NCBI GenBank assembly: GCA_964584495.1
Contig: CAZPAH010000002.1
Coordinates: 17,775-81,774 of the forward strand
DNA length: 64,000 bases
From: an uncultured bacterium
GTDB taxonomy: Bacteria; Krumholzibacteriota; Krumholzibacteriia; Krumholzibacteriales; Krumholzibacteriaceae
Direction of reading: 5' to 3'
The position numbers and the translations under genes were made by a program. Shown here in pieces: positions 2,605 to 18,486 of the stretch (the first letter of the stretch is position 1; every line of letters starts with the position of its first letter). The notes under the pieces were generated by a model. It saw only the letters and a program-made list of their open reading frames with translations. It had not been told where the DNA came from and ran no database searches.

Positions 2605-4086
2605 TCAACGTCCCATCGGCAGCCATAGGGAGAAGCCGTTCTTACCGTCCTTGCCATCGAGGCGCTGGAGAAGGCCGCGGTGTCCGGCTACGATAGTGCG
2701 CGCAAGCGACAGGCGGATTTCGCCGCCCTCCCTATTCCCGGCGGTTTCGTCCGCCCCGTCCGGCGACGGCCCGCTCGATTTTACGCCGTCGGCAACCGGC
2801 GCATCCCCCACGGAAGAGCCGATATCGACCCTGTAATAACGGTCCGCCCTTGCGGCGGCGAAACCGATCTCATTGCTGACCCGGGCGAGCTCCGGGAAAT
2901 CCGCGGCGGCGGCGGCGGAGATCCTTCCGGTTATGCAATCGTCCATACCGGAGCGGCCGCCCCCGGCAAAACCGGTATCGATACCGGCGGGAGGCCGATC
3001 CTCTACCGCCGTTACGATCTCCATGACCCCTCCGCTTCCAAAAGAAGCGAGAGCGCCGTCGATGATCGATCTTATGACTATCTTCATCTTCGACGGGTCG
3101 GCCGGAATATCAACGGGCCCTGCGGCGTCATCGAACCTTACGGTGATCCGTTTCTCCTCCAGCTCCGCTATGTATTCACGGAGGCAATCCTCGATCAGCG
3201 ATGAGATGTCGGTATCCTCCGGGGCGATCCCGACATCGTCGAAATTCATTTCCGCGACCGAAATCAGCTGGTCGACGGTCTTCTCTAGATTGACAAGAGC
3301 GTCTTTCGCCATATCGACGAGGATTTCCCCGCCGACCTCTCCCGGTTCAAGTGAATATAGCGCGCTTTTCAGGACACCGACCGGTGGAGCCAGTTCTATC
3401 GAGCTGCTCCTTATGAACTCTCCCTTGATACGCGAGAAATCGCCGGCCTTCTCCCCGCCTGCGGCGGTCCGGGTCAACGCGGCCGCATTCCCAAGGGCCG
3501 CTCCGGCGACCATGACGATCATCCCGAGAAACTCGGCGTCCGCATCGCTGAATATCTTGTTGCCTTCCATTCTGCCCACAAGAAGGATCCCCAGCAGCTC
3601 CCTCTTCGCGTAAACTGGCGAACAGTAAGGGAATCCGGCTTCGAGCAGCGACCTCACCGGATCGCTTTCAGCGTCGCCCCGGAGCTCTCCCGCATGATAT
3701 CGTTTAATATCGACCGGCCGTTTCTCCTGCTCAATCCAGGCTATGAAGTGGGAAGCATCTTGGATGCGCCGGGGTAATTCCGTTCGCCCCTTTCCCACAA
3801 CATGGCCGAGCTCTATCGTCATGCCCCCGGGGAGGACCCGGTAGAAGGCGACCCTGCCGATTCCCAGCTGCTCGACAATCGTCATGAGGAAAAGTCTGAT
3901 TATCCCTTCAGCGTCAAGCCTGCCCGCCAGTTTCTCGAACAGCCTGAAAAGGGTATCGAAGGCGAATATCTTCCTTTCCAGCTTTTTTTCGAGCATCCCG
4001 ACACTCGACCTGCCGGCAGCCTTCCTTCTTTTAGAAGTGGTTTCATCCATTTTAAGTACCGGTTCCAGAGGCTGAAAACCGGCCAC
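2605..4086 (-). CDS. GAF-domain protein with degenerate histidine-kinase-like C-terminus (possible pseudokinase)
   Basis: GAF-like region (residues about 50-200) is followed by a dimerisation-like helix (LISVAEMNFDD) that lacks the phospho-acceptor His. Then comes an HATPase-like tail (GGGRSGMD ... GEIRLSLARTIVAGHRGLL ... GFSLWLPM) with N-box Asn replaced. True start is probably the internal Met (MDETTSKRRK, about 4050). Confidence 0.45.
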   Translation of the reverse strand: MAGFQPLEPVLKMDETTSKRRKAAGRSSVGMLEKKLERKIFAFDTLFRLFEKLAGRLDAEGIIRLFLMTIVEQLGIGRVAFYRVLPGGMTIELGHVVGKGRTELPRRIQDASHFIAWIEQEKRPVDIKRYHAGELRGDAESDPVRSLLEAGFPYCSPVYAKRELLGILLVGRMEGNKIFSDADAEFLGMIVMVAGAALGNAAALTRTAAGGEKAGDFSRIKGEFIRSSSIELAPPVGVLKSALYSLEPGEVGGEILVDMAKDALVNLEKTVDQLISVAEMNFDDVGIAPEDTDISSLIEDCLREYIAELEEKRITVRFDDAAGPVDIPADPSKMKIVIRSIIDGALASFGSGGVMEIVTAVEDRPPAGIDTGFAGGGRSGMDDCITGRISAAAAADFPELARVSNEIGFAAARADRYYRVDIGSSVGDAPVADGVKSSGPSPDGADETAGNREGGEIRLSLARTIVAGHRGLLQRLDGKDGKNGFSLWLPMGR

Positions 4087-4475
4087 ACCCGCATGGAAAT
4101 CTTACTCGATATCGGTCGTGGCGCTCGTTTTCGTCGCCCGAGAGCAAAACCCTGTGAATCATAAGGTTACGGCGATTCCCAGCCGGACGGCCCGCTGGCT
4201 GTTTTCGTCTAACCGCTTGTCGGACGGCATCTTGCCTTACCGAACTCTTCAAAGCCGCCGGCCTTTATAGTTCCGGGCTGCAAGAACCATTCACATTGGG
4301 GGGTAGATTAGGGGAGTCGGTAAAAAAAGCTGGGCTGGAAAAAGGGCACCACGATACGCGATGCCCCACACTCTGCTTCATTCTGTAATGCCGTCCCGGG
4401 GTTATAAGGAGCGGACCGGCCCATACCGGCCGGCCGCTGACCCATAAAAACTGAATCCCTCCCTGCCCCAGCCTA

Positions 4476-4970
4476 TCAACCTTGAATCTTCTTGATCTCC
4501 TTGGAGATCAGCTGGACGTGTCTTTTCTCTTCGCCGATCAGCTTGTCTATCTCCTTCTTTCCCAAATCTTCGCGTGTCCGCGATTTCATCTCGTCGAAAA
4601 AGAGGATCGTATCCTTTTCGAATCTCAGGGCCTCTTCCAGAATTTGTACCGGTCCGCCAGCCTTGGCGGCGACCGCCTCGGCTTCCTTGGCCGTACCGAA
4701 CAATCTCGACTTTACCAGGGCGTCTAGATATAGATACTCCTGGTCATCGGGATCGGAAGCCGTCGGAGATGTCACCGCCGGGGGAAGGGAATCGCGAAGG
4801 CCCTTGAAAACTTCGAGATGCTTCTGCTCTTCCGAGAAGAGCATGTCGAAAATCTTCTTCAGAGCAGGGTCTTTCGTAATCTCAGAAGCCTTCCTGTAGT
4901 AGGCCATGCCGTTAGTCTCTATGTTCATTCCCATTTCGAATACTTCATCGGCATTGAAAGAAATACCCAT
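4476..4970 (-). CDS. rubrerythrin-family ferritin-like diiron protein (no rubredoxin domain)
   Basis: Two ferritin-like halves, each with an E-x-x-H motif (EEQKH, EEKRH) on a four-helix-bundle pattern. Last gene of the perR-led minus-strand cluster. Confidence 0.6.
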   Translation of the reverse strand: MGISFNADEVFEMGMNIETNGMAYYRKASEITKDPALKKIFDMLFSEEQKHLEVFKGLRDSLPPAVTSPTASDPDDQEYLYLDALVKSRLFGTAKEAEAVAAKAGGPVQILEEALRFEKDTILFFDEMKSRTREDLGKKEIDKLIGEEKRHVQLISKEIKKIQG

Positions 4971-5074
4971 TTTTATCCTCCTAAGCTAAAAACACCGGCC
5001 TCCCTGACGAGCCGCGGCGGATGCTGGGATCATGGCCGATCATTCTTCCCGGCGCCCCGACCGGGTGAGATCAC

Positions 5075-5236
5075 TTAATCGAGAGGCTCGAACTCATCCT
5101 TACCGACCCCACAGTCGGGACAAACCCAGTCACCCGGGAGATCCTCGAAAGAGGTGCCGGCCGGCACTCCGTTATCCGGATCCCCGATTGCGGGATCATA
5201 CACGTACCCGCACACGGTGCACTTCCACTTTTTCAT
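5075..5236 (-). CDS. rubredoxin
   Basis: [15 protein letters not shown]...[16 protein letters not shown] carries both CxxCG knuckles and the aromatic core of rubredoxin. Start moved to the internal ATG (MKKWKC), which has an AAGGAGA RBS upstream. About 53 aa. Confidence 0.85.
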
Positions 5237-5272
5237 CGTATTCTCCTTTCCAGGCCCCATTCTTTCGATCGA

Positions 5273-5764
5273 TCAATCCTCTAGAAAAGAGGTCGAATCG
5301 AAATCGAACCAGTACAACCCTCCCGCCAGAGAATTCTTCTCGGCAGTTAAAAGGTTATAATGCCCCATTTCTATCTGTGCAAGCTCCAAAAAGAATTTTT
5401 TCAGCTCGGCGGACACGGTCGCTCCCGCCTGCTTCTTGTAGAATTCATGCGCTTTCAGCTCGGCCTCAATCGCGATATCGAGTGCCTGCATCGCACCGGT
5501 CTCTTCCCGTATCGAGAGGCCCTGAATCTCGGCGAACGATTCGTTCTCGACGCCGGGCGCCGGGACCGTGCCGAACAGCTTCTCGTACCATCTGCCGAGA
5601 CTGTCCCTGTGCCCCTTCTCATCGAGCGAGAGCTGCAGAAACCTTTTTTTCCCTTCCGGATTCTCAATCCTGCCGGCAATTTCCGAATAAAAATTCATCG
5701 CCTTTATTTCGGCGATAATGGCCGTTTCCATAGCTTCCCTGAGATCTTCGGAGGTACCACTCAA
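5273..5764 (-). CDS. ferritin-like / rubrerythrin-family diiron protein
   Basis: 163 aa with two helix pairs carrying E-x-x-H motifs (DEKGH, IEMGH), the typical diiron-centre ligands of rubrerythrin or erythrin. No rubredoxin domain. Confidence 0.6.
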   Translation of the reverse strand: MSGTSEDLREAMETAIIAEIKAMNFYSEIAGRIENPEGKKRFLQLSLDEKGHRDSLGRWYEKLFGTVPAPGVENESFAEIQGLSIREETGAMQALDIAIEAELKAHEFYKKQAGATVSAELKKFFLELAQIEMGHYNLLTAEKNSLAGGLYWFDFDSTSFLED

Positions 5765-5767
5765 AGC

Positions 5768-6766
5768 TCATGCTCCTTTCGATTTCATTATGACAACGGA
5801 GATGTCGTCCTCAAGCGGCCTCTCCTTGACATGATCCTTTACACCGTCGATTATCGCCTCGATTATATCGGCGGGAGAACCGCCGCGGTTCCTTTCCAGA
5901 AGGCTCGCCACCCTCTTCCTCCCAAAGATCTCCCCCGCCTCGTTGCGCGCCTCGATGATCCCATCCGAGAACGAGCACAGGATATCGCCGCCGCCGAACG
6001 GGATCGAATGCTCCCTGTAGCGGAAGTCCGCGTCGATGCCCACGATCAGCTGCGTCTGGAGAAGGGAGCTCACCTGCCCTTTCTTATCGACCAGGAAAGG
6101 AGGCTCGTGTCCTGCGCAGGTAAAGGACAGCATCCCTTCTCTTGAATCGAAGAAAACGCAGAGCATCGTCAGGAAGATACCGCTTCCTTCATATTTTTTG
6201 TTCATTCTGGAGTTGATAAGCCCCACAATCCTGCCGGGACTTATCAGCCCGCTGTCCGCCCCCGCGGGCCCGGACCCTTCGAGATACTCCCCCACTATCC
6301 TCGCGGCGAAGGCATTCAGCCCCGCAGCGGCCGGACCGTGTCCCATCACGTCATAGATATAAAGCAGGGTCCCTCTCGTTCCGCTCCCGCGATCGCCTAT
6401 GGTCTCGGTATGGATATTATCCCCACCCACGAACCGGGACGGGATGCAGAGATATGCCCCTTCGATCGTGTCGTCGGTTCCGAGATCGTTTATCGAAAGC
6501 TCGCCGGAGATCGAATAGGCCATAGCCTCCTCTTCGCCGTTCTCCTCGGGAGCCTCCTTGCTCTTCTCGATCGCCCTGTACTCGTTAAGGAGGAGCCTCC
6601 TGTGCACCCTCTCCTCTTCCGCCAGTCTCGATAGAAGAGCTTTTATCGTAGGCGGCGTTATGGGGTTCTCGCTGCCCTTGTAATAGTAATTGAAGGAACT
6701 GGTCTCCCGTATCATCGCCTTCGACAGTATCTCCAGTATCTCTTTTTTAATCTCCGCCTGCATCAT
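5768..6766 (-). CDS. PP2C/SpoIIE-family serine phosphatase with N-terminal ferritin-like (E-x-x-H) half-domain
   Basis: C-terminal 230 aa has SpoIIE/PP2C motifs (YIYDVMGHGPAAAGLNAF; GDILCSFSDGIIEARNEAGEIFG). N-terminal about 90 aa form a helical segment with EEERVH, resembling one half of a rubrerythrin/ferritin-like bundle. Confidence 0.7.
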   Translation of the reverse strand: MMQAEIKKEILEILSKAMIRETSSFNYYYKGSENPITPPTIKALLSRLAEEERVHRRLLLNEYRAIEKSKEAPEENGEEEAMAYSISGELSINDLGTDDTIEGAYLCIPSRFVGGDNIHTETIGDRGSGTRGTLLYIYDVMGHGPAAAGLNAFAARIVGEYLEGSGPAGADSGLISPGRIVGLINSRMNKKYEGSGIFLTMLCVFFDSREGMLSFTCAGHEPPFLVDKKGQVSSLLQTQLIVGIDADFRYREHSIPFGGGDILCSFSDGIIEARNEAGEIFGRKRVASLLERNRGGSPADIIEAIIDGVKDHVKERPLEDDISVVIMKSKGA

Positions 6767-6829
6767 GACCTGTCTTTAAAGGCTTCCCCGGCACCGCGCC
6801 GGGCGTCACGGAAATCTGCGCGGGTCGAT

Positions 6830-7447
6830 TTATGGCCTGCTCTTGTTCTCCCGGAACTGGGCATAGGTGATCGGCTCGCCCCCGCTAAGCAATCCGCCGC
6901 AAAGTATATCGCCGATGAAGATACTGTGCGTTCCCACGTCCGCCGTCAGGCTTGGAACTATTGAAGCTTCTAGGTAACCCACCGAATCCTCCAGCAGGGG
7001 ACACCCGTTCTCGCCCTTCTTGACCCGAACTCCCTTCAGCTTATCGAATTCCCTTCCCGACCTGTATCCGAAGCGCCTTACCATCTTATGGTCGTTTACG
7101 CCCAGGATGGAGGCGGCGAACAGACCGCTCTTCTCGATATACTCGTGGGTAAGATTCTTCTTGTTGATGGCGATCGCAATGCGGGGAGGCTCGCTGGTTA
7201 CCTGGAAGAGGGTATTGCATATCTGCCCGTTCGATTTCTCCCCGTCGATCGACGTGACGACATAGAGACCGTAAACGATCTTGAGGCACACGTCGATTAT
7301 CGCCCGTATCTTGTCCGTAGGTATCGCGGCTTCGATCGACTGGGAGGAAAACGATCCCATCTTGCCGCAGGCGGGACACTTATCGGGCGGGAAAGAATCG
7401 ACTACCACATGACCACAGGAAGAGCACACCCAGTTTTGTGCAACCAT
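6830..7447 (-). CDS. flavin reductase-like (FMN-binding) protein with N-terminal rubredoxin-like zinc ribbon
   Basis: N-terminus WVCSSCGHVV...DKCPACG (CxxC-x15-CxxC). The remainder matches the flavin-reductase-like beta-barrel pattern (GLYVVTSIDGEKSNGQICNTLFQVTSEPPRIAIAINKKNLTHEYIEKSGLFAASIL). Confidence 0.65.
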   Translation of the reverse strand: MVAQNWVCSSCGHVVVDSFPPDKCPACGKMGSFSSQSIEAAIPTDKIRAIIDVCLKIVYGLYVVTSIDGEKSNGQICNTLFQVTSEPPRIAIAINKKNLTHEYIEKSGLFAASILGVNDHKMVRRFGYRSGREFDKLKGVRVKKGENGCPLLEDSVGYLEASIVPSLTADVGTHSIFIGDILCGGLLSGGEPITYAQFRENKSRP

Positions 7448-7457
7448 ACGATTCTCC

Positions 7458-7874
7458 TTACAGGCATTCCCGGCAGATTCCCCTGAAGACGGCGCTGCAA
7501 GATTCCACCCGGTGTCCGTCGATCTCGGCCGTGTCGTAGCATTTTTTGCTTTCGCTATCGACCGGGATATCGAAGATTCTGTTGCACTTGCCGCATATGA
7601 AATGATTGTGCATCTCCGTGAATGGATCGTAGTTCAGATAACCCTTGGAAACGCAGATCGCCTGGATCTCCCCGATCTTCTCGAGCATTTCCAGGGTATT
7701 GTAGACGGTGGAGAAGGAGAGGCCCGGATTTTTACGCTTCAGCTCATTGTAGATCGAGACCGCCGCAGGGTGATTGCGGTTCCCGATCATATACTTTATG
7801 ACGGCAAGCCTCTGCGGCGTAAGCTTGAACCCCTTCTTTCTAAGAAGGGCGATCGTTTCATCTAGAGCGTGCAA
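7458..7874 (-). CDS. perR: Fur-family transcriptional regulator, peroxide-responsive (PerR-like)
   Basis: 138 aa. N-terminal winged helix (LTPQRLAVIKYM), HPAAVSIY, and C-terminal HNHFICGKCNR...CxxC structural-zinc motif of the Fur family. Assigned PerR rather than Fur/Zur only because it leads a rubrerythrin/rubredoxin operon. Confidence 0.7.
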   Translation of the reverse strand: MHALDETIALLRKKGFKLTPQRLAVIKYMIGNRNHPAAVSIYNELKRKNPGLSFSTVYNTLEMLEKIGEIQAICVSKGYLNYDPFTEMHNHFICGKCNRIFDIPVDSESKKCYDTAEIDGHRVESCSAVFRGICRECL

Positions 7875-7944
7875 TTTGTAAGTCCCTTCCGTTCACCATC
7901 CTAGGCCCTATCGCTCTATCAAGGATATATCCGGAGCGGCCCAG

Positions 7945-7983
7945 TGTCAATAATAATTCTTAATAAGAACACAACTTATTAAA
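7945..7983 (-). promoter_or_regulatory. putative perR promoter (-35 TTGACA) with adjacent AT-rich inverted repeat CTTAATAAG-N7-CTTATTAAA
   Basis: AT-rich island in otherwise GC-rich DNA, 75-125 nt upstream of the perR start. The minus strand reads TTGACA-N15/17-TATATC/TATCCT. A 9-bp inverted repeat (one mismatch) lies at about 7959..7983, with further TTAAATATTAAATTATTAA repeats to 7999. Confidence 0.35.
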
Positions 7984-7999
7984 TATTAAATTATTAATC

Positions 8000-8728
8000 T
8001 CATCCGCCGGAGACCCCGCCCGCAGGACCTCCCCCGTAGCCGCAAATAGTCTCGAGGGGACACCCCTCGCAAACCGGCTTTTTCCCGCAGAACCTTTTTC
8101 CGTGTTCTACGATCAGCGCGTGGTACTCCTGGTAAATCAGGACGTCGCCGGGAAGGTTCGTCTCGAACAGATCCCTTATCTGCTCGTATCCTTCCTCTCC
8201 CGTCAAGATTCCTATCCGAGAGAATATCCTTCTTGTATACGCATCTACAACAAAAAACTGCTTTCCGAAAGAGTAGAGCATGATCGAATCAGCCGTTTCG
8301 GGACCTATTCCATTCAATCCCAGCAGGCCTTCCCGCGTTATCGGCTCCCTCTCGGCGAAAAGACCGGCCAGCCTCCGAAGCCTCAATCCCTTCTGGTTAT
8401 AGTATCCCGACGGCCTGATAAGGGCCGACAGGGTTTCCTCGTCGGCCGATAAGAGCTTTTCCGGATCGAGCAGCCCCGCCCTGAGCAGGTTGACCACTCC
8501 CTTTGCGGCGTTCTTCCACGAGGTGTTCTGCGTCAGAACGGCTCCGGCTGCGACTTCGAACCTTTGCGCCTCCGTCTCTGGTCCTCCGGTATACCTGGGC
8601 TCATCGGCTCCCGCTCCGGTGACCGGCCACCATCCCCTCGGCCCGTACGACTCCATCAGCAACGTGTATACGGCCTCCACCACCGCTCCCGGTCTTTTAT
8701 CGAACCCGCCTCCCAACTTGATCGCCAC
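8000..8728 (-). CDS. HhH-GPD superfamily base-excision repair protein (endonuclease III-like) with C-terminal Cys cluster
   Basis: HhH-GPD core (FVVDAYTRRIFSRIGI ... helix-hairpin-helix, Gly/Pro-rich loop, Asp) and a C-terminal CGKKPVCEGCPLETIC cysteine motif as in Nth/MutY-type [4Fe-4S] glycosylases. Confidence 0.65.
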   Translation of the reverse strand: MAIKLGGGFDKRPGAVVEAVYTLLMESYGPRGWWPVTGAGADEPRYTGGPETEAQRFEVAAGAVLTQNTSWKNAAKGVVNLLRAGLLDPEKLLSADEETLSALIRPSGYYNQKGLRLRRLAGLFAEREPITREGLLGLNGIGPETADSIMLYSFGKQFFVVDAYTRRIFSRIGILTGEEGYEQIRDLFETNLPGDVLIYQEYHALIVEHGKRFCGKKPVCEGCPLETICGYGGGPAGGVSGG

Positions 8729-8886
8729 CTCCTATTGCGAGACACGGTGAGAGGATACCCCGTAACTCCGGCTTTTACCAGAAATCAATAGCGGGGATCA
8801 AAGATTCTAAAATGCCTTGCCGCCGTGGAAGAGTCCGCTTATTGTCCTTATATGTTATTTAGATTCAATTCGAAGGAGAGCTCCAA

Positions 8887-10422
8887 ATGAATGAAGAGAA
8901 GTTCCAGGCCGGCGCGAAAAACCGTTCGGCGACCCTAAGAGCGCTTGACAGGATAGAGAGGATTGGAAACAGGCTTCCTCACCCCGCCACCCTCTTCGCA
9001 ATCTTCGCCGCAACGGTGGCGGTATTGTCGTATATCGTCCACCGCGCCGGGATCACGGCGGTTCATCCCGGTACCGGAAAGGTTATCGAGGCGGTAAACA
9101 TGCTGAATCCGGACGGGCTCCGTTTCATCTATTCCAGGACGACCGACAACTTCGTCCACTTTCCTCCCCTCGGAATAGTGCTGGTGGCGATGATAGGGAT
9201 AGGTGTGGCGGAGGGGTCCGGCCTGATATCCGCCCTCCTGAGACATCTCGTGACGGCGGCGCCGCGCCGACTCGTAACGGCGGCCGTCGTCACTGCAGGC
9301 ATCCTTTCCCATCTCGCCTCCAGCGTCGGCTACGTCGTTCTCATACCCTTGGGAGCGATGATATTCATGGCTTTCAAGCGCCACCCGATAGCGGGGATCG
9401 CCGCCGCGTTCTGCGGAGTCTCGGGAGGATTCGGGGCCAATTTCCTTATCGGATCGATAGACCCTATCCTTGCCGGGCTCACCGAATCGGCCGCGACGCT
9501 TATCGTTCCGGGGATCCATATCAATCCGGCCGTCAACTTCTACTTCATGGTCGCATCCGCCTGCCTCCTGGTGTTCCTGGGGACTTGGGTCACCGAGAAG
9601 ATCGTGGAACCGAGGCTGGGAACCTACGAGGGGAAGCACGAGGAATTCGAGTCTGTATCGCCGAAAGAGAAAAAGGGACTCGCCTGGGCCGGAATAACCT
9701 GCGCCGTCGTGATCGCCCTTCTTCTTCTGATGGTGATCCCCTCCAACGGCGTCCTCCGTGACCCGGAGACAGGCTCGATCCTGCGTTCTCCCTTCATGAG
9801 CGGCAGGATAAGCGCGATCATGATATTCTTTCTCCTCCCGGGAATCGCCTACGGTATAGCGGTCGGCACGATCCGCAGCGACAAGGATGTCGTAAAACAG
9901 ATGACCTCCTCGATGAAGGGACTCGCCGGTTATATAGTCCTGGTTTTCTTCGCCGGACAGTTCGTCTATTATTTCAAGCACAGCAACATCGGGGTGCTGC
10001 TCGCCATAAGGGGGGCCGATCTGCTGAAAACCCTGGGGTTCACCGGTATATGGCTTCTCATCTCTTACGTCATACTCTCGGCTTTCATCAACCTCTTCAT
10101 GGGTAGCGCATCGGCGAAATGGGCGATCATGGCCCCCGTCTTCGTTCCGATGTTCATGCTCCTCGGCTATCATCCGGGGATCACGCAGGCGGCCTTCAGG
10201 ATCGGCGACTCGATAACGAACATTATCACCCCTATGATGAGCTATTTCGCGTTGATAGTCGCATTCGCCCAGAAATACGACGAGCGCTACGGTATCGGCA
10301 CGATCACGGCGACGATGCTGCCGTACTCGATCATCTTCGGTTTCTTCTGGATAGCGCTTCTCGCCGTTTGGATGCTGCTCGGACTACCTACAGGGCCCGA
10401 TGCGCCTATTCATCTCCCGTAA
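8887..10422 (+). CDS. AbgT-family transporter (p-aminobenzoyl-glutamate/antimetabolite transporter family)
   Basis: 511-aa polytopic membrane protein. Length, N-terminal amphipathic start and hydrophobicity pattern match the AbgT/YdaH family. RBS GAAGGAGAG lies before the ATG. Confidence 0.7.
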   Translation: MNEEKFQAGAKNRSATLRALDRIERIGNRLPHPATLFAIFAATVAVLSYIVHRAGITAVHPGTGKVIEAVNMLNPDGLRFIYSRTTDNFVHFPPLGIVLVAMIGIGVAEGSGLISALLRHLVTAAPRRLVTAAVVTAGILSHLASSVGYVVLIPLGAMIFMAFKRHPIAGIAAAFCGVSGGFGANFLIGSIDPILAGLTESAATLIVPGIHINPAVNFYFMVASACLLVFLGTWVTEKIVEPRLGTYEGKHEEFESVSPKEKKGLAWAGITCAVVIALLLLMVIPSNGVLRDPETGSILRSPFMSGRISAIMIFFLLPGIAYGIAVGTIRSDKDVVKQMTSSMKGLAGYIVLVFFAGQFVYYFKHSNIGVLLAIRGADLLKTLGFTGIWLLISYVILSAFINLFMGSASAKWAIMAPVFVPMFMLLGYHPGITQAAFRIGDSITNIITPMMSYFALIVAFAQKYDERYGIGTITATMLPYSIIFGFFWIALLAVWMLLGLPTGPDAPIHLP

Positions 10423-10466
10423 AAGCCCGCGGGGGTCACCGGCTGCTATCAGTTAAAGATTCAGTG

Positions 10467-11345
10467 AGGGCGGTCGATAACTGTTGTGTGAAAGAAAAGC
10501 TGCATAAGTACAAGAAGATCGAGAGCGGATTTATCACCGACCTGAAAACTTTGTCGGCCGCCGAGAGGGCCGTCGGGTGCAAAAAGCACGGGAACTCAGT
10601 TTCCAGCAGGGTATTCGTTGAAACCAGCGCCGGCTGCCCACCGGGTTCCCATGTGCGATTCCATCTCGATCTTCCCGGCGGGGGACAATACACGCTGTCC
10701 GGAGTCATCGAATGGGGCAACGACGGCTCCCTCCCCGGAAAACCGGTCGGTTTGGGAATACACGTGCTCGAGATGGAAGAAGGCCGGGAAAAGGGCCCCG
10801 CCGACGGAGACGATCCGGCGGCCGGCCGGGAGGCACCGCCGGTTGCGGAGGAGCGAAGACACGGCAGAAGCAGTCTTCCGCCCTTGGAGGAGATCGCGGA
10901 GCTGCTGCACTCCCTTCTCGATATGAAGATCGCGGTCGAACCGGGTCAGCCGGTGCAGCTCGACCAGGAGAAGCCGACGGCGGTCGCCACGTTTGTTAAC
11001 GAAGCCGGAAGGGTCAAGACCGTCCTGCTTTGTGATCTTGAAGGCATCATATATCTGGGAGCCGGGATGGCGGTGATGCCGGCCGACCTCGCGCACGAAT
11101 TCATCTCTTCGAAGAATATCCCGGACAATATCGCGGAGATTTTCCAGGAAGTCATCAACGAATCGGCTAACCTCTTTAACAAGAGCGGAAAACTTCACCT
11201 CTCGCCTGGAGTCCTTAAGATCACACCCGACACCCTGCCCGACAAGGTCGAGAGATTGATATCCAAGCCGGGGTCTCGCCTCGATATTAAGATAGAGGTC
11301 CCAGGTTACGGGACGGGTATGATCTCCCTGATCGAGTCATCGTAG
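10467..11345 (+). CDS. hypothetical protein, possible PilZ-like N-domain plus CheX/CheC-like C-domain
   Basis: The supplied ORF (from 10119) overlaps abgT. The first plausible starts after the abgT stop are in-frame GTG codons at about 10467 or 10488. The region HVRFHLDLPGGGQYTLSGVIEWG...GLGIHVLEM resembles a PilZ beta-barrel, and the C-terminus (NIAEIFQEVINESANLFNKSG) resembles CheX-like phosphatase folds. Both calls are weak. Confidence 0.3.
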   Translation, partial: RAVDNCCVKEKLHKYKKIESGFITDLKTLSAAERAVGCKKHGNSVSSRVFVETSAGCPPGSHVRFHLDLPGGGQYTLSGVIEWGNDGSLPGKPVGLGIHVLEMEEGREKGPADGDDPAAGREAPPVAEERRHGRSSLPPLEEIAELLHSLLDMKIAVEPGQPVQLDQEKPTAVATFVNEAGRVKTVLLCDLEGIIYLGAGMAVMPADLAHEFISSKNIPDNIAEIFQEVINESANLFNKSGKLHLSPGVLKITPDTLPDKVERLISKPGSRLDIKIEVPGYGTGMISLIESS

Positions 11346-14216: not shown

Positions 14217-14909
14217 ATGGAATATATCTTGTACATATCGATACAGAATCCCTGCGTAGCCGACGGAAAGGCGATTATGCACCAGTTGACGATATTTACC
14301 AACCTGACCAAGATAGCCGCCCTTATCTATCTCCTCGCCATGGCGACAGGGGGATACAGGGGAAAGGGACCGAGAAGGATCCTGATCCCCCTTATCATCC
14401 CCGTTTCGATCGCCCTCAATTGGTTGTCCGGAGGCATCGGCGGGCTTCTATTCTCCCTTTCGGGAATCGCCGTCGCATCCCTCTGTCTCTTTCCCCTTTC
14501 GCTATGGAACAGGCTTCCCCGTTCAGGCTTCGTTGATGCATCGGCGGTGGGAACGATCTTCGGTCCGACCGGTTCGATAGCGGTTTTCGCGATAGCGTTG
14601 ATTCTACAGGTGGTCGAATGGCTGGTGGGCGGACGGTCCACATCGATAAGGGACCGGTTTGCCGGCTACGCTTTCAGCTTCGCATCGTCCTTTACCACCG
14701 ATGCCCAGTCCTCGCCTTTTACCGCGATAGAGGCAAAGAAGGTCATGATAGACGAATACCGAATCATCGACGAGATGGGAGGCGATTCTTTCCGCCGGGA
14801 ACACGAGTTCCTTGACGCGCCGCCCCAACTTAATAGTCTCACCCTTCCATGGCGGGCGAGACTGGCGCTCGCCACTCTATCAATCCTGATAAGCGGTCTT
14901 TTTATTTAG
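14217..14909 (+). CDS. hypothetical polytopic membrane protein
   Basis: 4-5 predicted TM helices. It loosely resembles A24 prepilin-peptidase-like membrane proteins, but the catalytic Asp pair is not evident, so no function is assigned. Start is uncertain (alternative Met at about 14277). Confidence 0.35.
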   Translation: MEYILYISIQNPCVADGKAIMHQLTIFTNLTKIAALIYLLAMATGGYRGKGPRRILIPLIIPVSIALNWLSGGIGGLLFSLSGIAVASLCLFPLSLWNRLPRSGFVDASAVGTIFGPTGSIAVFAIALILQVVEWLVGGRSTSIRDRFAGYAFSFASSFTTDAQSSPFTAIEAKKVMIDEYRIIDEMGGDSFRREHEFLDAPPQLNSLTLPWRARLALATLSILISGLFI

Positions 14910-16759: not shown

Positions 16760-17956
16760 ATGACGGAAAAGAGAAGAAAAAGGATCCTCACGGCGATTTC
16801 CCTCTACCATGCATGCAATGACGGATCGGTCGTCACCCTGCCGATGCTCTTCCCCCTTCTTTTCGATCAGGGCATCCTGATCAGAAATTATGACGACATC
16901 GGGAGGCTCAATCTTGTCGGCCTCGTAGTCGCCTTCAGCTTCCAGGCCGCCCTCGGACACTGGGCGAGAAGAAGGCATTCAGGATACTACCTGGCGGCCG
17001 ACGCCCTAATCACCGGGGTATCCCTTTTCCTGCTCACCCTATCGATCGACTACTGGATGCTGGTCGTCTTCTTCGTCGCCATGAGAATAGGAACCAGCAT
17101 ATATCACCCGGTAGGCATATCCTGGCTCTCCCACACGTTCGGAGGAATGAACCTCGACAAGCCGATGGGGGTGCAGTCGGCGTTCGGGGACCTCGGGGTC
17201 CTTATATCATTCTCGACAACGGGACTGCTCGCCCAGAAATTCGGATGGAAAATCCCGCTTTTTCTATGGGGATTCTTGAACTTCGCCGCGATGGTCGTCG
17301 GTCTCTTCATATCGAGGAGGACGACCAGCCGACAGGAAGCGATCGAGCAGAAGGAGGAGGAGAAGGAACCTGTATCCTGGATCAAAGCTTTTGGTTCCCT
17401 CGGAACGTTTGTCCCGATGATCGTTCTCGGAGGCCTCACCTGGGGCATCACCCTTAACTTCGCTCCCAGCCTCATGGACCACGGGCTGGGACTATCCCTG
17501 TCGGAAACCGGTGTCGTATTCGGCTTCTGGATCGCCGCGGGAGCACTGTCGTCACTGTTTTACGGAAAGATAACGGAGCTGTTCGGCAGGCTCAGGTCGC
17601 TTATCCTCGCTCTAACGATCATCGCCGGCACCACCTTTGTCATCGGATTCTCGCGGGATGTCTCGATATCGATCGCCGCCATGACACTTTACGGAGCGGC
17701 CCTCTTCATCATCTACCCGGCGATCCTCTCGTATCTGGGCGGCAGATCCAACCCGAGAAACCGGACCCCCACATTCGCCCTTTCGGCGAATATCATGATC
17801 GTCGCCAACTCGATATTCACCTACCTGTCGGGCCGCATTTCGGACCTGTACGGCATCCACACCCCGTTCATCCTGATCGGAATCATCACGTCCCTTGTCC
17901 TTCTCTATGTCCTCATGATAAGATCTTCCCTGAAATCATCTCTTTCGAAAGGATAA
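16760..17956 (+). CDS. MFS transporter
   Basis: 398 aa with 12 predicted TM helices in two 6-TM halves. Loop motifs of the major facilitator superfamily (GxLaDrxGrr-like region HWARRRHSG). Confidence 0.7.
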   Translation: MTEKRRKRILTAISLYHACNDGSVVTLPMLFPLLFDQGILIRNYDDIGRLNLVGLVVAFSFQAALGHWARRRHSGYYLAADALITGVSLFLLTLSIDYWMLVVFFVAMRIGTSIYHPVGISWLSHTFGGMNLDKPMGVQSAFGDLGVLISFSTTGLLAQKFGWKIPLFLWGFLNFAAMVVGLFISRRTTSRQEAIEQKEEEKEPVSWIKAFGSLGTFVPMIVLGGLTWGITLNFAPSLMDHGLGLSLSETGVVFGFWIAAGALSSLFYGKITELFGRLRSLILALTIIAGTTFVIGFSRDVSISIAAMTLYGAALFIIYPAILSYLGGRSNPRNRTPTFALSANIMIVANSIFTYLSGRISDLYGIHTPFILIGIITSLVLLYVLMIRSSLKSSLSKG

Positions 17957-17958
17957 TT

Positions 17959-18486
17959 ATGGGAACGATCCGCCGGTTGATTCTGGCTTCGACCGCCGCG
18001 GCGGTGCTGGCCTCGGCAGGATGCTCGGGCCCCTCTACCGGTAACGAGGAAAACGTGCTCAGGCGCTTTCCGATAACCGGCTCGTCCGATATCATCACGA
18101 AATCGGGAGTGAGCTTTGACAGAGAGGTAACCAGCGACGGTAACGGCTCCATAAGGATAGAGGCGACCGGGCCCAGGACGGTGCAGCTCTACCAGCTCGG
18201 CGCCCCCGCGACCCAAGACCGTCTTCTCACCTACAAGGCCTCACTGAAAACGGAGAATTTCGACGGCAAGGTCTACCTCGAGCTGAAGTACCGCGTACCT
18301 GGGAAAGGCGAATTTCAACGGAGGGGCCTTAAAGACTCGCTGTCGGGAAATGCCGGCTGGAAAACCGTCACGGCCTCGATCCGTCCGGAAAAGGATTCCA
18401 CGCCGGATATCATATGGCTGAACGTAGTCGCCCACGGCACCGGCACCGCCTGGATCGACGACATAAGGCTTGTCGAAAGCCGCTGA
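17959..18486 (+). CDS. hypothetical lipoprotein
   Basis: Signal peptide with lipobox LASAGC. Soluble beta-rich remainder with no recognisable motif. Starts 3 nt after the MFS gene. Confidence 0.5.
   Translation: MGTIRRLILASTAAAVLASAGCSGPSTGNEENVLRRFPITGSSDIITKSGVSFDREVTSDGNGSIRIEATGPRTVQLYQLGAPATQDRLLTYKASLKTENFDGKVYLELKYRVPGKGEFQRRGLKDSLSGNAGWKTVTASIRPEKDSTPDIIWLNVVAHGTGTAWIDDIRLVESR

Follow-up and report, generated by a model that had tools for sequence, protein, structure and literature searches.

A conserved fusion of a half-ferritin domain to a PP2C phosphatase in a PerR-type, rubredoxin-encoding gene cluster of an uncultured bacterium

The window analysed here is a 64-kb stretch of DNA (64,000 nucleotides, positions 17,775 to 81,774 of contig CAZPAH010000002.1) from an uncultured bacterium of the Krumholzibacteriaceae. 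At 4476-7874 it carries six open reading frames, all on the minus strand, which agree with the six co-directional genes placed there by the initial annotation. They encode, in order, a PerR-type regulator of the Fur family, a flavin reductase fused to an FeCys4 ribbon (gene 2), a phosphatase of the PP2C class (5768-6766), an erythrin, a rubredoxin and a second ferritin-like protein (Table 1). The same gene order is seen again in many independent genomes and this, together with the domain assignments of the six genes, is far beyond chance. Two of the proteins had been singled out as unusual domain fusions. For the phosphatase this is correct, whereas the fusion of a rubredoxin-like ribbon to a flavin reductase is common and already annotated. 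The operon with its regulator, rubredoxin and erythrin, like the reductase fusion, is of a known kind; the real finding of the locus is the fusion of a half-ferritin domain to a PP2C phosphatase, which forms a conserved family that is widespread in candidate phyla of the Fibrobacterota-Chlorobiota-Bacteroidota (FCB) group.

Table 1. Features assigned within the gene cluster and at its two ends, with positions in the window.
Feature	Coordinates	Strand	Basis
Sigma-70-like promoter TTGACA-17-TATCCT, upstream of the fur gene	7922..7950	(-)	Consensus scan, 10/12 matches
Candidate PerR/Fur-type operator TTAAGAATTATTATTGACA, 19 bp, AT-rich	7945..7963	(-)	Overlaps the -35 hexamer
PerR-type Fur-family regulator, 138 residues	7458..7874	(-)	Pfam FUR, 87 bits
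FeCys4 ribbon and flavin reductase fusion (gene 2)	6830..7447	(-)	RUBY_RBDX (PF21349) 30.1 bits, cut-off 26.5; Flavin_Reduct (PF01613) 104 bits
Rubrerythrin-type FeCys4 ribbon of gene 2, residues 5-33	7349..7435	(-)	RUBY_RBDX
N-terminal half-ferritin (EncFtn-like) two-helix domain of the phosphatase, residues 1-68	6563..6766	(-)	PF02915; putative ligands E21, E52, H55, second-shell Y28
PPM/PP2C (SpoIIE-type) catalytic domain, residues ~100-329	5780..6469	(-)	SpoIIE profile
Translational-coupling junction AAAGGAG, TGA stop, 3 nucleotides, TTG start	5762..5779	(-)	Last PP2C codons act as Shine-Dalgarno
Erythrin, 163 residues, E / ExxH / E / ExxH	5273..5764	(-)	PF02915 Rubrerythrin, full length, 66.7 bits
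Rubredoxin	5075..5260	(-)	PF00301, 86 bits; NCBIfam RubredRD 101 bits, above the equivalog cut-off of 90
Second ferritin-like diiron-carboxylate protein, 164 residues, E / ExxH / E / ExxH	4476..4970	(-)	PF02915, 34 bits, two stretches
Intrinsic-terminator-like hairpin GGGGCAUCGCGUAUCGUGGUGCCC then UUUUU	4339..4367	(-)	GC-rich, after the last gene

The public copy of the phosphatase is called from its second methionine and is 331 residues long. Residues 131-328 match the SpoIIE family (PF07228) with 139.3 bits against a cut-off of 25, and the structures nearest to the catalytic domain in a Foldseek search are SiaA (6k4e, E 1e-13), followed by RssB, SpoIIE, the RsbU domain of Rv1364c and RsbX. 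Ahead of this domain, residues 12-81 match the Rubrerythrin family (PF02915) with 28.8 bits (cut-off 22.8), aligning with positions 1-72 of the 137 in the profile. With one ExxH motif and half of the profile covered, this N-terminal domain (the N-domain) is not a complete four-helix bundle with two E...ExxH pairs.

The relationship to ferritin-like proteins does not depend on the one sequence. All 24 N-domains of the family that were tested match PF02915, and comparison of an N-domain profile with the PDB returns 2fzf (the erythrin-like protein of P. furiosus), the P. furiosus EncFtn and M. xanthus EncB/EncC. When aligned by hhalign with each half of the erythrin encoded next to it, the N-domain matches with 96% probability, the Glu and the ExxH being in register. 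It has no match to PF22277 and scores 14.6 bits against a cut-off of 90 with the NCBIfam model EncB_fam. AlphaFold2 (AF2) predicts a helical hairpin, with helices at residues 2-32 and 39-68 and a predicted local distance difference test score (pLDDT) of 91.7 for the domain alone, compared with 82 for the full-length protein. About 40 of the best 50 matches of the N-domain in a Foldseek search of the PDB are EncFtn, EncB or EncC, superposing with a root-mean-square deviation of ~1.1 Å over 55-62 residues. The ferritin-like half-domain with an ExxH motif proposed by the initial annotation is therefore borne out by PF02915, by hhalign, by Foldseek and by the invariance of the motif described below. 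A diiron four-helix bundle, formed alone or as a dimer, had also been envisaged; the prediction gives a confident, EncFtn-like hairpin and no such bundle within the monomer.

A search of 5.8 billion proteins yielded 92 clusters (at 90% identity), mostly of ~331 residues, whose members are either 36-53% identical to the window protein over nearly its full length or shorter fragments of such proteins. Where they have been given names at all, these are 'SpoIIE family protein phosphatase' or 'RsbU' only. Scanning species-representative genomes gave 56 full-length relatives. They are found in Krumholzibacteriota, Latescibacterota, Aegiribacteria/Fermentibacteraceae, Zixibacteria, bins labelled as Ignavibacteria, Eisenbacteria and division B38. 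The window protein is closest to those of Candidatus Krumholzibacteriota (50-53%), with which the window shares a wider synteny that takes in an HhH-GPD glycosylase and an AbgT transporter. In an alignment of 64 sequences from several phyla, in which overall identity falls to ~30%, residues E21, Y28, E51, E52, R53, H55 and R56 of the N-domain are invariant (64/64) while neighbouring positions vary. The metal-binding aspartates of the phosphatase, D116, D139, D268 and D320, are likewise invariant in 63-64 of the 64.

The initial annotation considered such a sensor-phosphatase fusion to be undescribed. This has held up, as we found no paper on one in the literature searched, nor any that links rubrerythrin, ferritin-like, hemerythrin or diiron to PP2C, SpoIIE or RsbU. 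The idea that the N-domain might be a general sensor module, used with other outputs as well, was rejected on the basis of a profile search of 1.84 billion representatives: the best 150 matches were PP2C fusions, small erythrins, two rhodanese-erythrins and pieces of 59-79 residues that are possibly fragments. Representatives P0144 and P0218 have a rhodanese (sulfur-transfer) domain fused to a full erythrin/EncFtn-like bundle, which is an uncharacterised ferritin-like fusion in its own right.

By comparing the surroundings of the fusion at non-redundant loci (54, or 49 for counts of upstream genes) we found that the partner conserved across phyla is rubredoxin, and not PerR or the erythrins; this is the strongest clue to function. 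At 44 of the 54 loci the 2.5 kb downstream of the phosphatase gene contain a rubredoxin gene in the same orientation, often 16-170 nucleotides after the stop codon of the phosphatase. In genomes of the Zixibacteria type the unit consists of no more than a PP2C-rubredoxin bicistron, set among housekeeping genes. An erythrin or ferritin-like gene is found by the phosphatase at 30 of the 54 loci and PerR is encoded upstream of it at 22 of the 49, while the slot just upstream is taken by a flavin reductase or a flavodiiron protein at 16 of the 49. The enzymes around the PP2C-rubredoxin core are interchangeable.

Among relatives from the Krumholzibacteriota, a flavodiiron protein (Lactamase_B-ODP-Flavodoxin) replaces the flavin reductase upstream of the phosphatase at loci L007/L029, L025, L027 and L030. 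At L007/L029, L025 and L027 the ferritin-like gene is followed by one for a polyferredoxin-like Fer4 protein, and TusA/DsrE genes come next at L007.

The regulator at the head of the cluster has as its best solved relatives the PerR proteins of B. subtilis and S. pyogenes, the closest structure being B. subtilis PerR (2fe3, E 2.4e-20), with which it aligns without a gap. All five of the regulatory-site ligands of B. subtilis PerR are kept, H37, D85, H91, H93 and D104 corresponding to H35, D83, H89, H91 and D102 here, as are the four cysteines of the zinc site (C94, C97, C134 and C137). The best NCBIfam model is that of the clostridial PerR, TransRegPerRClab. Because the score of 105.3 bits does not reach its equivalog cut-off of 180, we call the protein PerR-type rather than an equivalog of a curated PerR.

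In gene 2 the flavin reductase domain spans residues 57-197 and has as its nearest structure 1i0r (E 2.8e-33), which we take to be the A. fulgidus ferric reductase. The ribbon in front of it has its cysteines at positions 8, 11, 24 and 27, that is, CxxC-x12-CxxC, and the spacing of CxxC-x15-CxxC given earlier was wrong. CxxC-x12-CxxC is the spacing of the rubrerythrin C-terminal domain. More than 100 homologues combine PF21349 or PF00301 with PF01613, many of them labelled 'flavin reductase/rubredoxin', so that the fusion is an ordinary one, of a common and already annotated Hrb-type architecture. Hrb, the high-molecular-weight rubredoxin of Moorella thermoacetica, reportedly combines flavin reductase and rubredoxin-type FeCys4 domains and is encoded together with rubrerythrin and a flavodiiron protein. 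Gene 2 resembles it in having both kinds of domain in one chain and in lying in an oxidative-stress cluster, and differs in that its FeCys4 module stands at the N-terminus and is the short kind found in rubrerythrin. FeCys4 modules on either side of the flavin reductase are both common in databases, and we read gene 2 as a domain-order variant of the known Hrb type. It is likely to be an NAD(P)H-dependent reductase and the entry point of an electron chain to rubredoxin.

We call the product of the fourth gene an erythrin because, although a diiron four-helix bundle like that of rubrerythrin, it has no rubredoxin domain; its best match in the PDB is 2fzf (E 8e-8). The earlier description of it as rubrerythrin-like had the family right, and it is the missing rubredoxin domain that makes erythrin the better term. 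According to Pfam, a fused rubredoxin-like FeCys4 domain is absent from the phosphatase and from both ferritin-like proteins and is carried by the flavin reductase. The second ferritin-like protein finds 1vjx (E 8e-6), the ferritin-like diiron-carboxylate protein TM1526. Translation of the rubredoxin probably starts at ATG 5236, preceded by the Shine-Dalgarno sequence GGAAAGGAG, which would give a protein of 53 residues.

The erythrin probably starts at TTG 5764, 3 nucleotides after the stop codon of the phosphatase gene. The two reading frames are one and the same and are separated just by TGA GCT. Readthrough of the stop codon, or its use for selenocysteine, to join the phosphatase to the erythrin was considered and rejected, as the stop varies between TGA, TAG and TAA, and in some relatives the two genes overlap out of frame. 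An AAAGGAG-stop-NNN-TTG/GTG junction is kept at 12 of the 20 junctions compared, those of the window and of 11 related loci (L001, L002, L009, L010, L012, L013, L015, L017, L018, L021 and L026). The variable stop codons and the conserved Shine-Dalgarno-stop-start junction, a textbook coupling signal seen in the Krumholzibacteriota group, point to translational coupling and not to readthrough.

The gaps between the six reading frames are, in order, 10, 63, 3, 12-36 and 104 nucleotides. The RNA from the internal intergenic regions folds no better than shuffled sequence (z +1.1 and +0.25), with no internal terminator structure, and within the cluster both promoter-like sites (5, with 2.8±1.7 expected) and terminator-like sites (7, with 4.9±2.4 expected) are at chance level. 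A split of the operon by internal signals was rejected on these grounds. By contrast, the region after the last gene (4330-4475, minus strand) has a predicted fold of -64 kcal/mol with z = -2.3. The candidate operator TTAAGAATTATTATTGACA is unique in the window (1 match compared with 0.01 expected), and at 13 of 15 loci with close PerR orthologues it is found upstream of fur with at most 3 mismatches, the -35 hexamer being kept along with it in related loci. This 19-mer is a putative binding site and behaves as would be expected of an autoregulatory operator of the Fur family. These results support the PerR-led oxidative-stress operon of the rubredoxin/rubrerythrin type that had been proposed here, and the cluster is best explained as a single PerR-repressed transcription unit for the reductive detoxification of O2 and peroxide in an anaerobe.

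About 12 nucleotides upstream of the candidate operator there is a second AT-rich, partly palindromic stretch, GATTAATAATTTAATATTTAATAAG (7975-7999, minus strand), which could be an extra Fur-family site or an UP-element.

The absence of STAS or anti-sigma partners near the phosphatase, pointed out in the initial annotation, was confirmed and extends further. Neither phmmer nor jackhmmer found a STAS or RsbW protein in the whole window, nor did Pfam find one among the neighbours. The jackhmmer search, applied as a control to 10 unrelated PP2C loci, picks up an adjacent STAS or RsbW at 9 of them. Within the family, it finds them only at L005, L018 and L036, in each case by a separate HAMP-SpoIIE gene. 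Such partners were therefore rejected for the fusion, both in the window and at typical loci of the family, by a search that succeeds at the control PP2C genes.

Directly downstream of the operon, at 2605-4086 on the minus strand, lies a gene for a GAF and histidine-kinase-like protein of 493 residues, which in at least 7 relatives likewise comes after the ferritin-like gene. The H-box of the protein has no phospho-acceptor histidine and reads SSIELAPP, with TAADLETS in relatives from the Krumholzibacteriota and the canonical TSHELRTP in the orthologue at L036. At L005 and L036 the kinase-like homologue comes after a HAMP-SpoIIE gene and one in which HATPase_c_2 and STAS are fused. The 493-residue protein could be a pseudo-kinase of the same signalling network.

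On the other side, directly upstream of perR and on the same strand (8000-8728), is a gene for a DNA glycosylase of the HhH-GPD/EndoIII-like kind with a C-terminal cysteine cluster. It is probably a separate transcript because it lies upstream of the operator and promoter. Its adjacency to perR is kept at ~14 related loci, which suggests a genomic link between the base-excision repair of oxidative damage and the peroxide operon. In relatives (L001, L002, L005, L010 and others) the genes for the AbgT transporter and the glycosylase are separated by nikR, joined at some loci by metal-transporter genes of the CbiMQO type. In the window this place is just a gap of 159 nucleotides (8729-8886), so nikR was either lost or never present in this lineage. 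Sizeable reading frames at 10119-11345, 14217-14909 and 17959-18486, all on the plus strand, have no Pfam match at E ≤0.001. The true start of the first is probably later, because as it stands the reading frame shares sequence, in a different frame, with the 3' end of the AbgT transporter gene.

The genes present, their domains, the invariance of the ligand residues, the conserved synteny and the operator sequence are shown by the analyses above. The scheme that follows is inferred from them where it concerns the binding of metal, the pairing of chains, electron transfer from rubredoxin, and how and on what substrate the phosphatase is made to act. Electrons would pass from NAD(P)H through the FeCys4/flavin reductase to rubredoxin and on to the diiron erythrin or ferritin-like peroxidases. 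A diiron site is out of reach of a lone hairpin, which carries just three buried ligand residues. We propose that two N-domains pair in an antiparallel manner to give a four-helix bundle with one symmetric diiron site at the interface, made up of E21, E52 and H55 from each chain with Y28 in the second shell; such a dimer would supply the classic set of four glutamates and two histidines. Assembly and geometry of the site would depend on occupancy by Fe(II) and on oxidation by H2O2 or O2, possibly also by nitric oxide (NO), and the co-transcribed rubredoxin, charged by the reductase, would re-reduce it as in rubrerythrin. The redox or occupancy state could then set the state or geometry of the dimer and hence the activity of the PP2C domain, in a class known to switch by dimerisation, with the phosphatase presumably acting on a phosphoprotein encoded elsewhere.

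This is the most economical model, in effect a rubrerythrin in split form put to use as a sensor. Taken as a whole, this reading, of a PerR-repressed detoxification operon that includes a rubredoxin-recycled diiron sensor controlling a PP2C phosphatase through metal-dependent dimerisation, has in our estimation a probability of roughly 0.55. The more specific proposal, that the half-ferritin domain is a direct sensor of H2O2 or O2 (or NO), its EncFtn-like interfacial diiron centre being oxidised by the stressor and re-reduced by rubredoxin so as to switch the PPM phosphatase, is put forward tentatively, and we would place it short of even odds.

A number of observations weigh against this reading. 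One clade, that of Aegiribacteria/Fermentibacteraceae, keeps the fusion without redox neighbours, and the genes nearby provide neither a substrate nor a kinase nor a STAS partner. The Foldseek E-values for the hairpin of 78 residues are individually weak (0.14-1.5). The stretch that connects the two domains of the phosphatase is not helical in the AF2 monomer, with a pLDDT below 50 for residues 70-82, and is not modelled as the coiled coil of RsbU, RsbP and RssB. An antiparallel bundle would, on the model, put the two C-termini at opposite ends, which makes the geometry of coupling awkward. Finally, all members of the family are from metagenome-assembled genomes of uncultured organisms.

We have considered four other explanations, all of which are disfavoured relative to the rubredoxin-recycled sensor. 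The N-domain could be purely a sensor of iron availability, with the interfacial site binding Fe(II) reversibly, so that dimerisation reports the labile iron pool and the phosphatase is tuned to iron status. In EncFtn it is the binding of Fe(II) between the two chains of the dimer that drives assembly (PMC5012862), a Fur-family protein heads the operon, and NikR and metal-transporter genes are syntenic in relatives. We nevertheless regard this as unlikely, since the partner conserved at 44 of the 54 loci is an electron carrier, the variable neighbours are reductases of O2, NO and H2O2 (the flavodiiron protein and the erythrins) and not iron-uptake genes, and the regulator has the ligand set of PerR, including the aspartate at the D104 position. 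Slightly less likely again is a role in docking, whereby the hairpin binds the coupled erythrin or the second ferritin-like protein and tethers the phosphatase to it for mutual regulation or dephosphorylation. Domain swapping is known among proteins of the rubrerythrin family, either half of the erythrin encoded next to the fusion is a homologue of the N-domain, and the junction between the two genes, with its Shine-Dalgarno sequence inside the upstream gene, implies that they are translated together. However, 24 of the 54 loci have no adjacent erythrin or ferritin-like gene and yet keep every ligand residue, and in the erythrins the four-helix bundle, with its two ExxH motifs, is complete already.

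The ligand set and the pairing with rubredoxin are also those of a peroxidase, and the dimer of N-domains together with rubredoxin might simply act as a small enzyme of the rubrerythrin type, the PP2C domain being regulated in some other way or dephosphorylating the enzymes of the operon. That no signalling partner is encoded nearby would agree with this. We think it doubtful, though, given that a further peroxidase would be redundant where erythrins or flavodiiron proteins are usually co-encoded, and that the one-to-one pairing of the domain with a signalling phosphatase that has kept its catalytic residues, strict across a diverged family, argues for functional coupling of the two. Least probable by some way is that the N-domain is a metal-free helical domain for dimerisation or structure, ferritin-like by descent only. 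RsbU does have a metal-free four-helix-bundle dimerisation domain (PMC12143880), and helical hairpins in general score weak structural E-values; against this stand the seven residues of the N-domain that are invariant in all 64 sequences across several phyla, and the destabilising effect that buried Glu, Glu and His would have without a metal.

Few types of regulator are known by which strict anaerobes sense oxidants, as opposed to detoxifying them. In the family described here, protein dephosphorylation would be tied to a chemistry known from rubrerythrin and encapsulated ferritin, such that redox or iron status could feed into phospho-signalling and not just into a repressor. If the half-ferritin domain is indeed a direct sensor of H2O2 or O2 (or NO), this would represent a chemistry of peroxide and O2 sensing apart from the thiol sensors (OxyR, OhrR) and from the iron-catalysed histidine oxidation of PerR, and the first case of a metal-carboxylate module acting as the sensor in Ser/Thr phosphatase signalling, widespread in uncultured phyla of the FCB group. 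The family would add a new class of sensor to the toolkit of bacterial PPM phosphatases and provide a soluble, natural half-ferritin whose dimerisation has a regulatory read-out. Although the hosts are uncultured, the hypothesis can be tested directly in vitro, because the protein has 331 residues and clear targets for mutation in E21, E52 and H55, and its putative partners, rubredoxin and the reductase, are co-encoded.

Of the known systems, the N-domain is matched best, in structure and in profile searches, by the encapsulated ferritins EncFtn (R. rubrum Rru_A0973, P. furiosus PFC_05175) and M. xanthus EncB/EncC, which are two-helix half-ferritins. The ferroxidase centre of EncFtn is formed by Glu32, Tyr39, Glu62 and His65 of two chains in a metal-dependent assembly at the dimer interface (PMC5012862). 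In the N-domain E21, Y28, E52 and H55 follow the same pattern, with spacings of +7, +31 (+30 in EncFtn) and +3. It differs from EncFtn in having no apparent third helix or decamer-forming region, and in being fused to a phosphatase and paired with a rubredoxin gene rather than with iron storage. The neighbours scanned were redox enzymes and included no encapsulin gene, though no search aimed at encapsulin was made. The rubrerythrins and erythrins (such as D. vulgaris Rbr and the 2fzf type of P. furiosus) resemble the fusion in the PF02915 score, in the register of the ligands, which is that of each half of their bundle, in the co-encoded rubredoxin as electron donor and in the setting of an oxidative-stress operon under PerR. 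Here, however, the N-domain is half of a four-helix bundle with one ExxH and no fused rubredoxin domain, and the output is a PP2C phosphatase.

The catalytic domain is nearest to those of RsbU, RsbP, SpoIIE, RssB and SiaA, with which the fusion also shares a layout of N-terminal dimerising or sensing module, linker and PP2C domain. PPM phosphatases of the RsbU type are activated by dimerisation of the phosphatase domain, driven from the N-terminal domains, through a linker that in RsbU is flexible until activation (PMC12143880). The sensor modules given for the class are the RsbU four-helix bundle, PAS, REC, GAF and HAMP, with no mention of a ferritin-like or diiron module (PMC12143880). The fusion thus differs from these partner-switching phosphatases, whose listed modules are never metal-carboxylate ones, and also in having no adjacent STAS or RsbW genes.

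The concept of a diiron-bundle sensor joined to a signalling output is shared with hemerythrin-domain signalling proteins such as DcrH and Bhr-DGC, in which a diiron four-helix bundle senses O2 or redox state. These use the hemerythrin fold with a His-rich site in one chain and have chemotaxis or c-di-GMP as their outputs, whereas the output here is a phosphatase.

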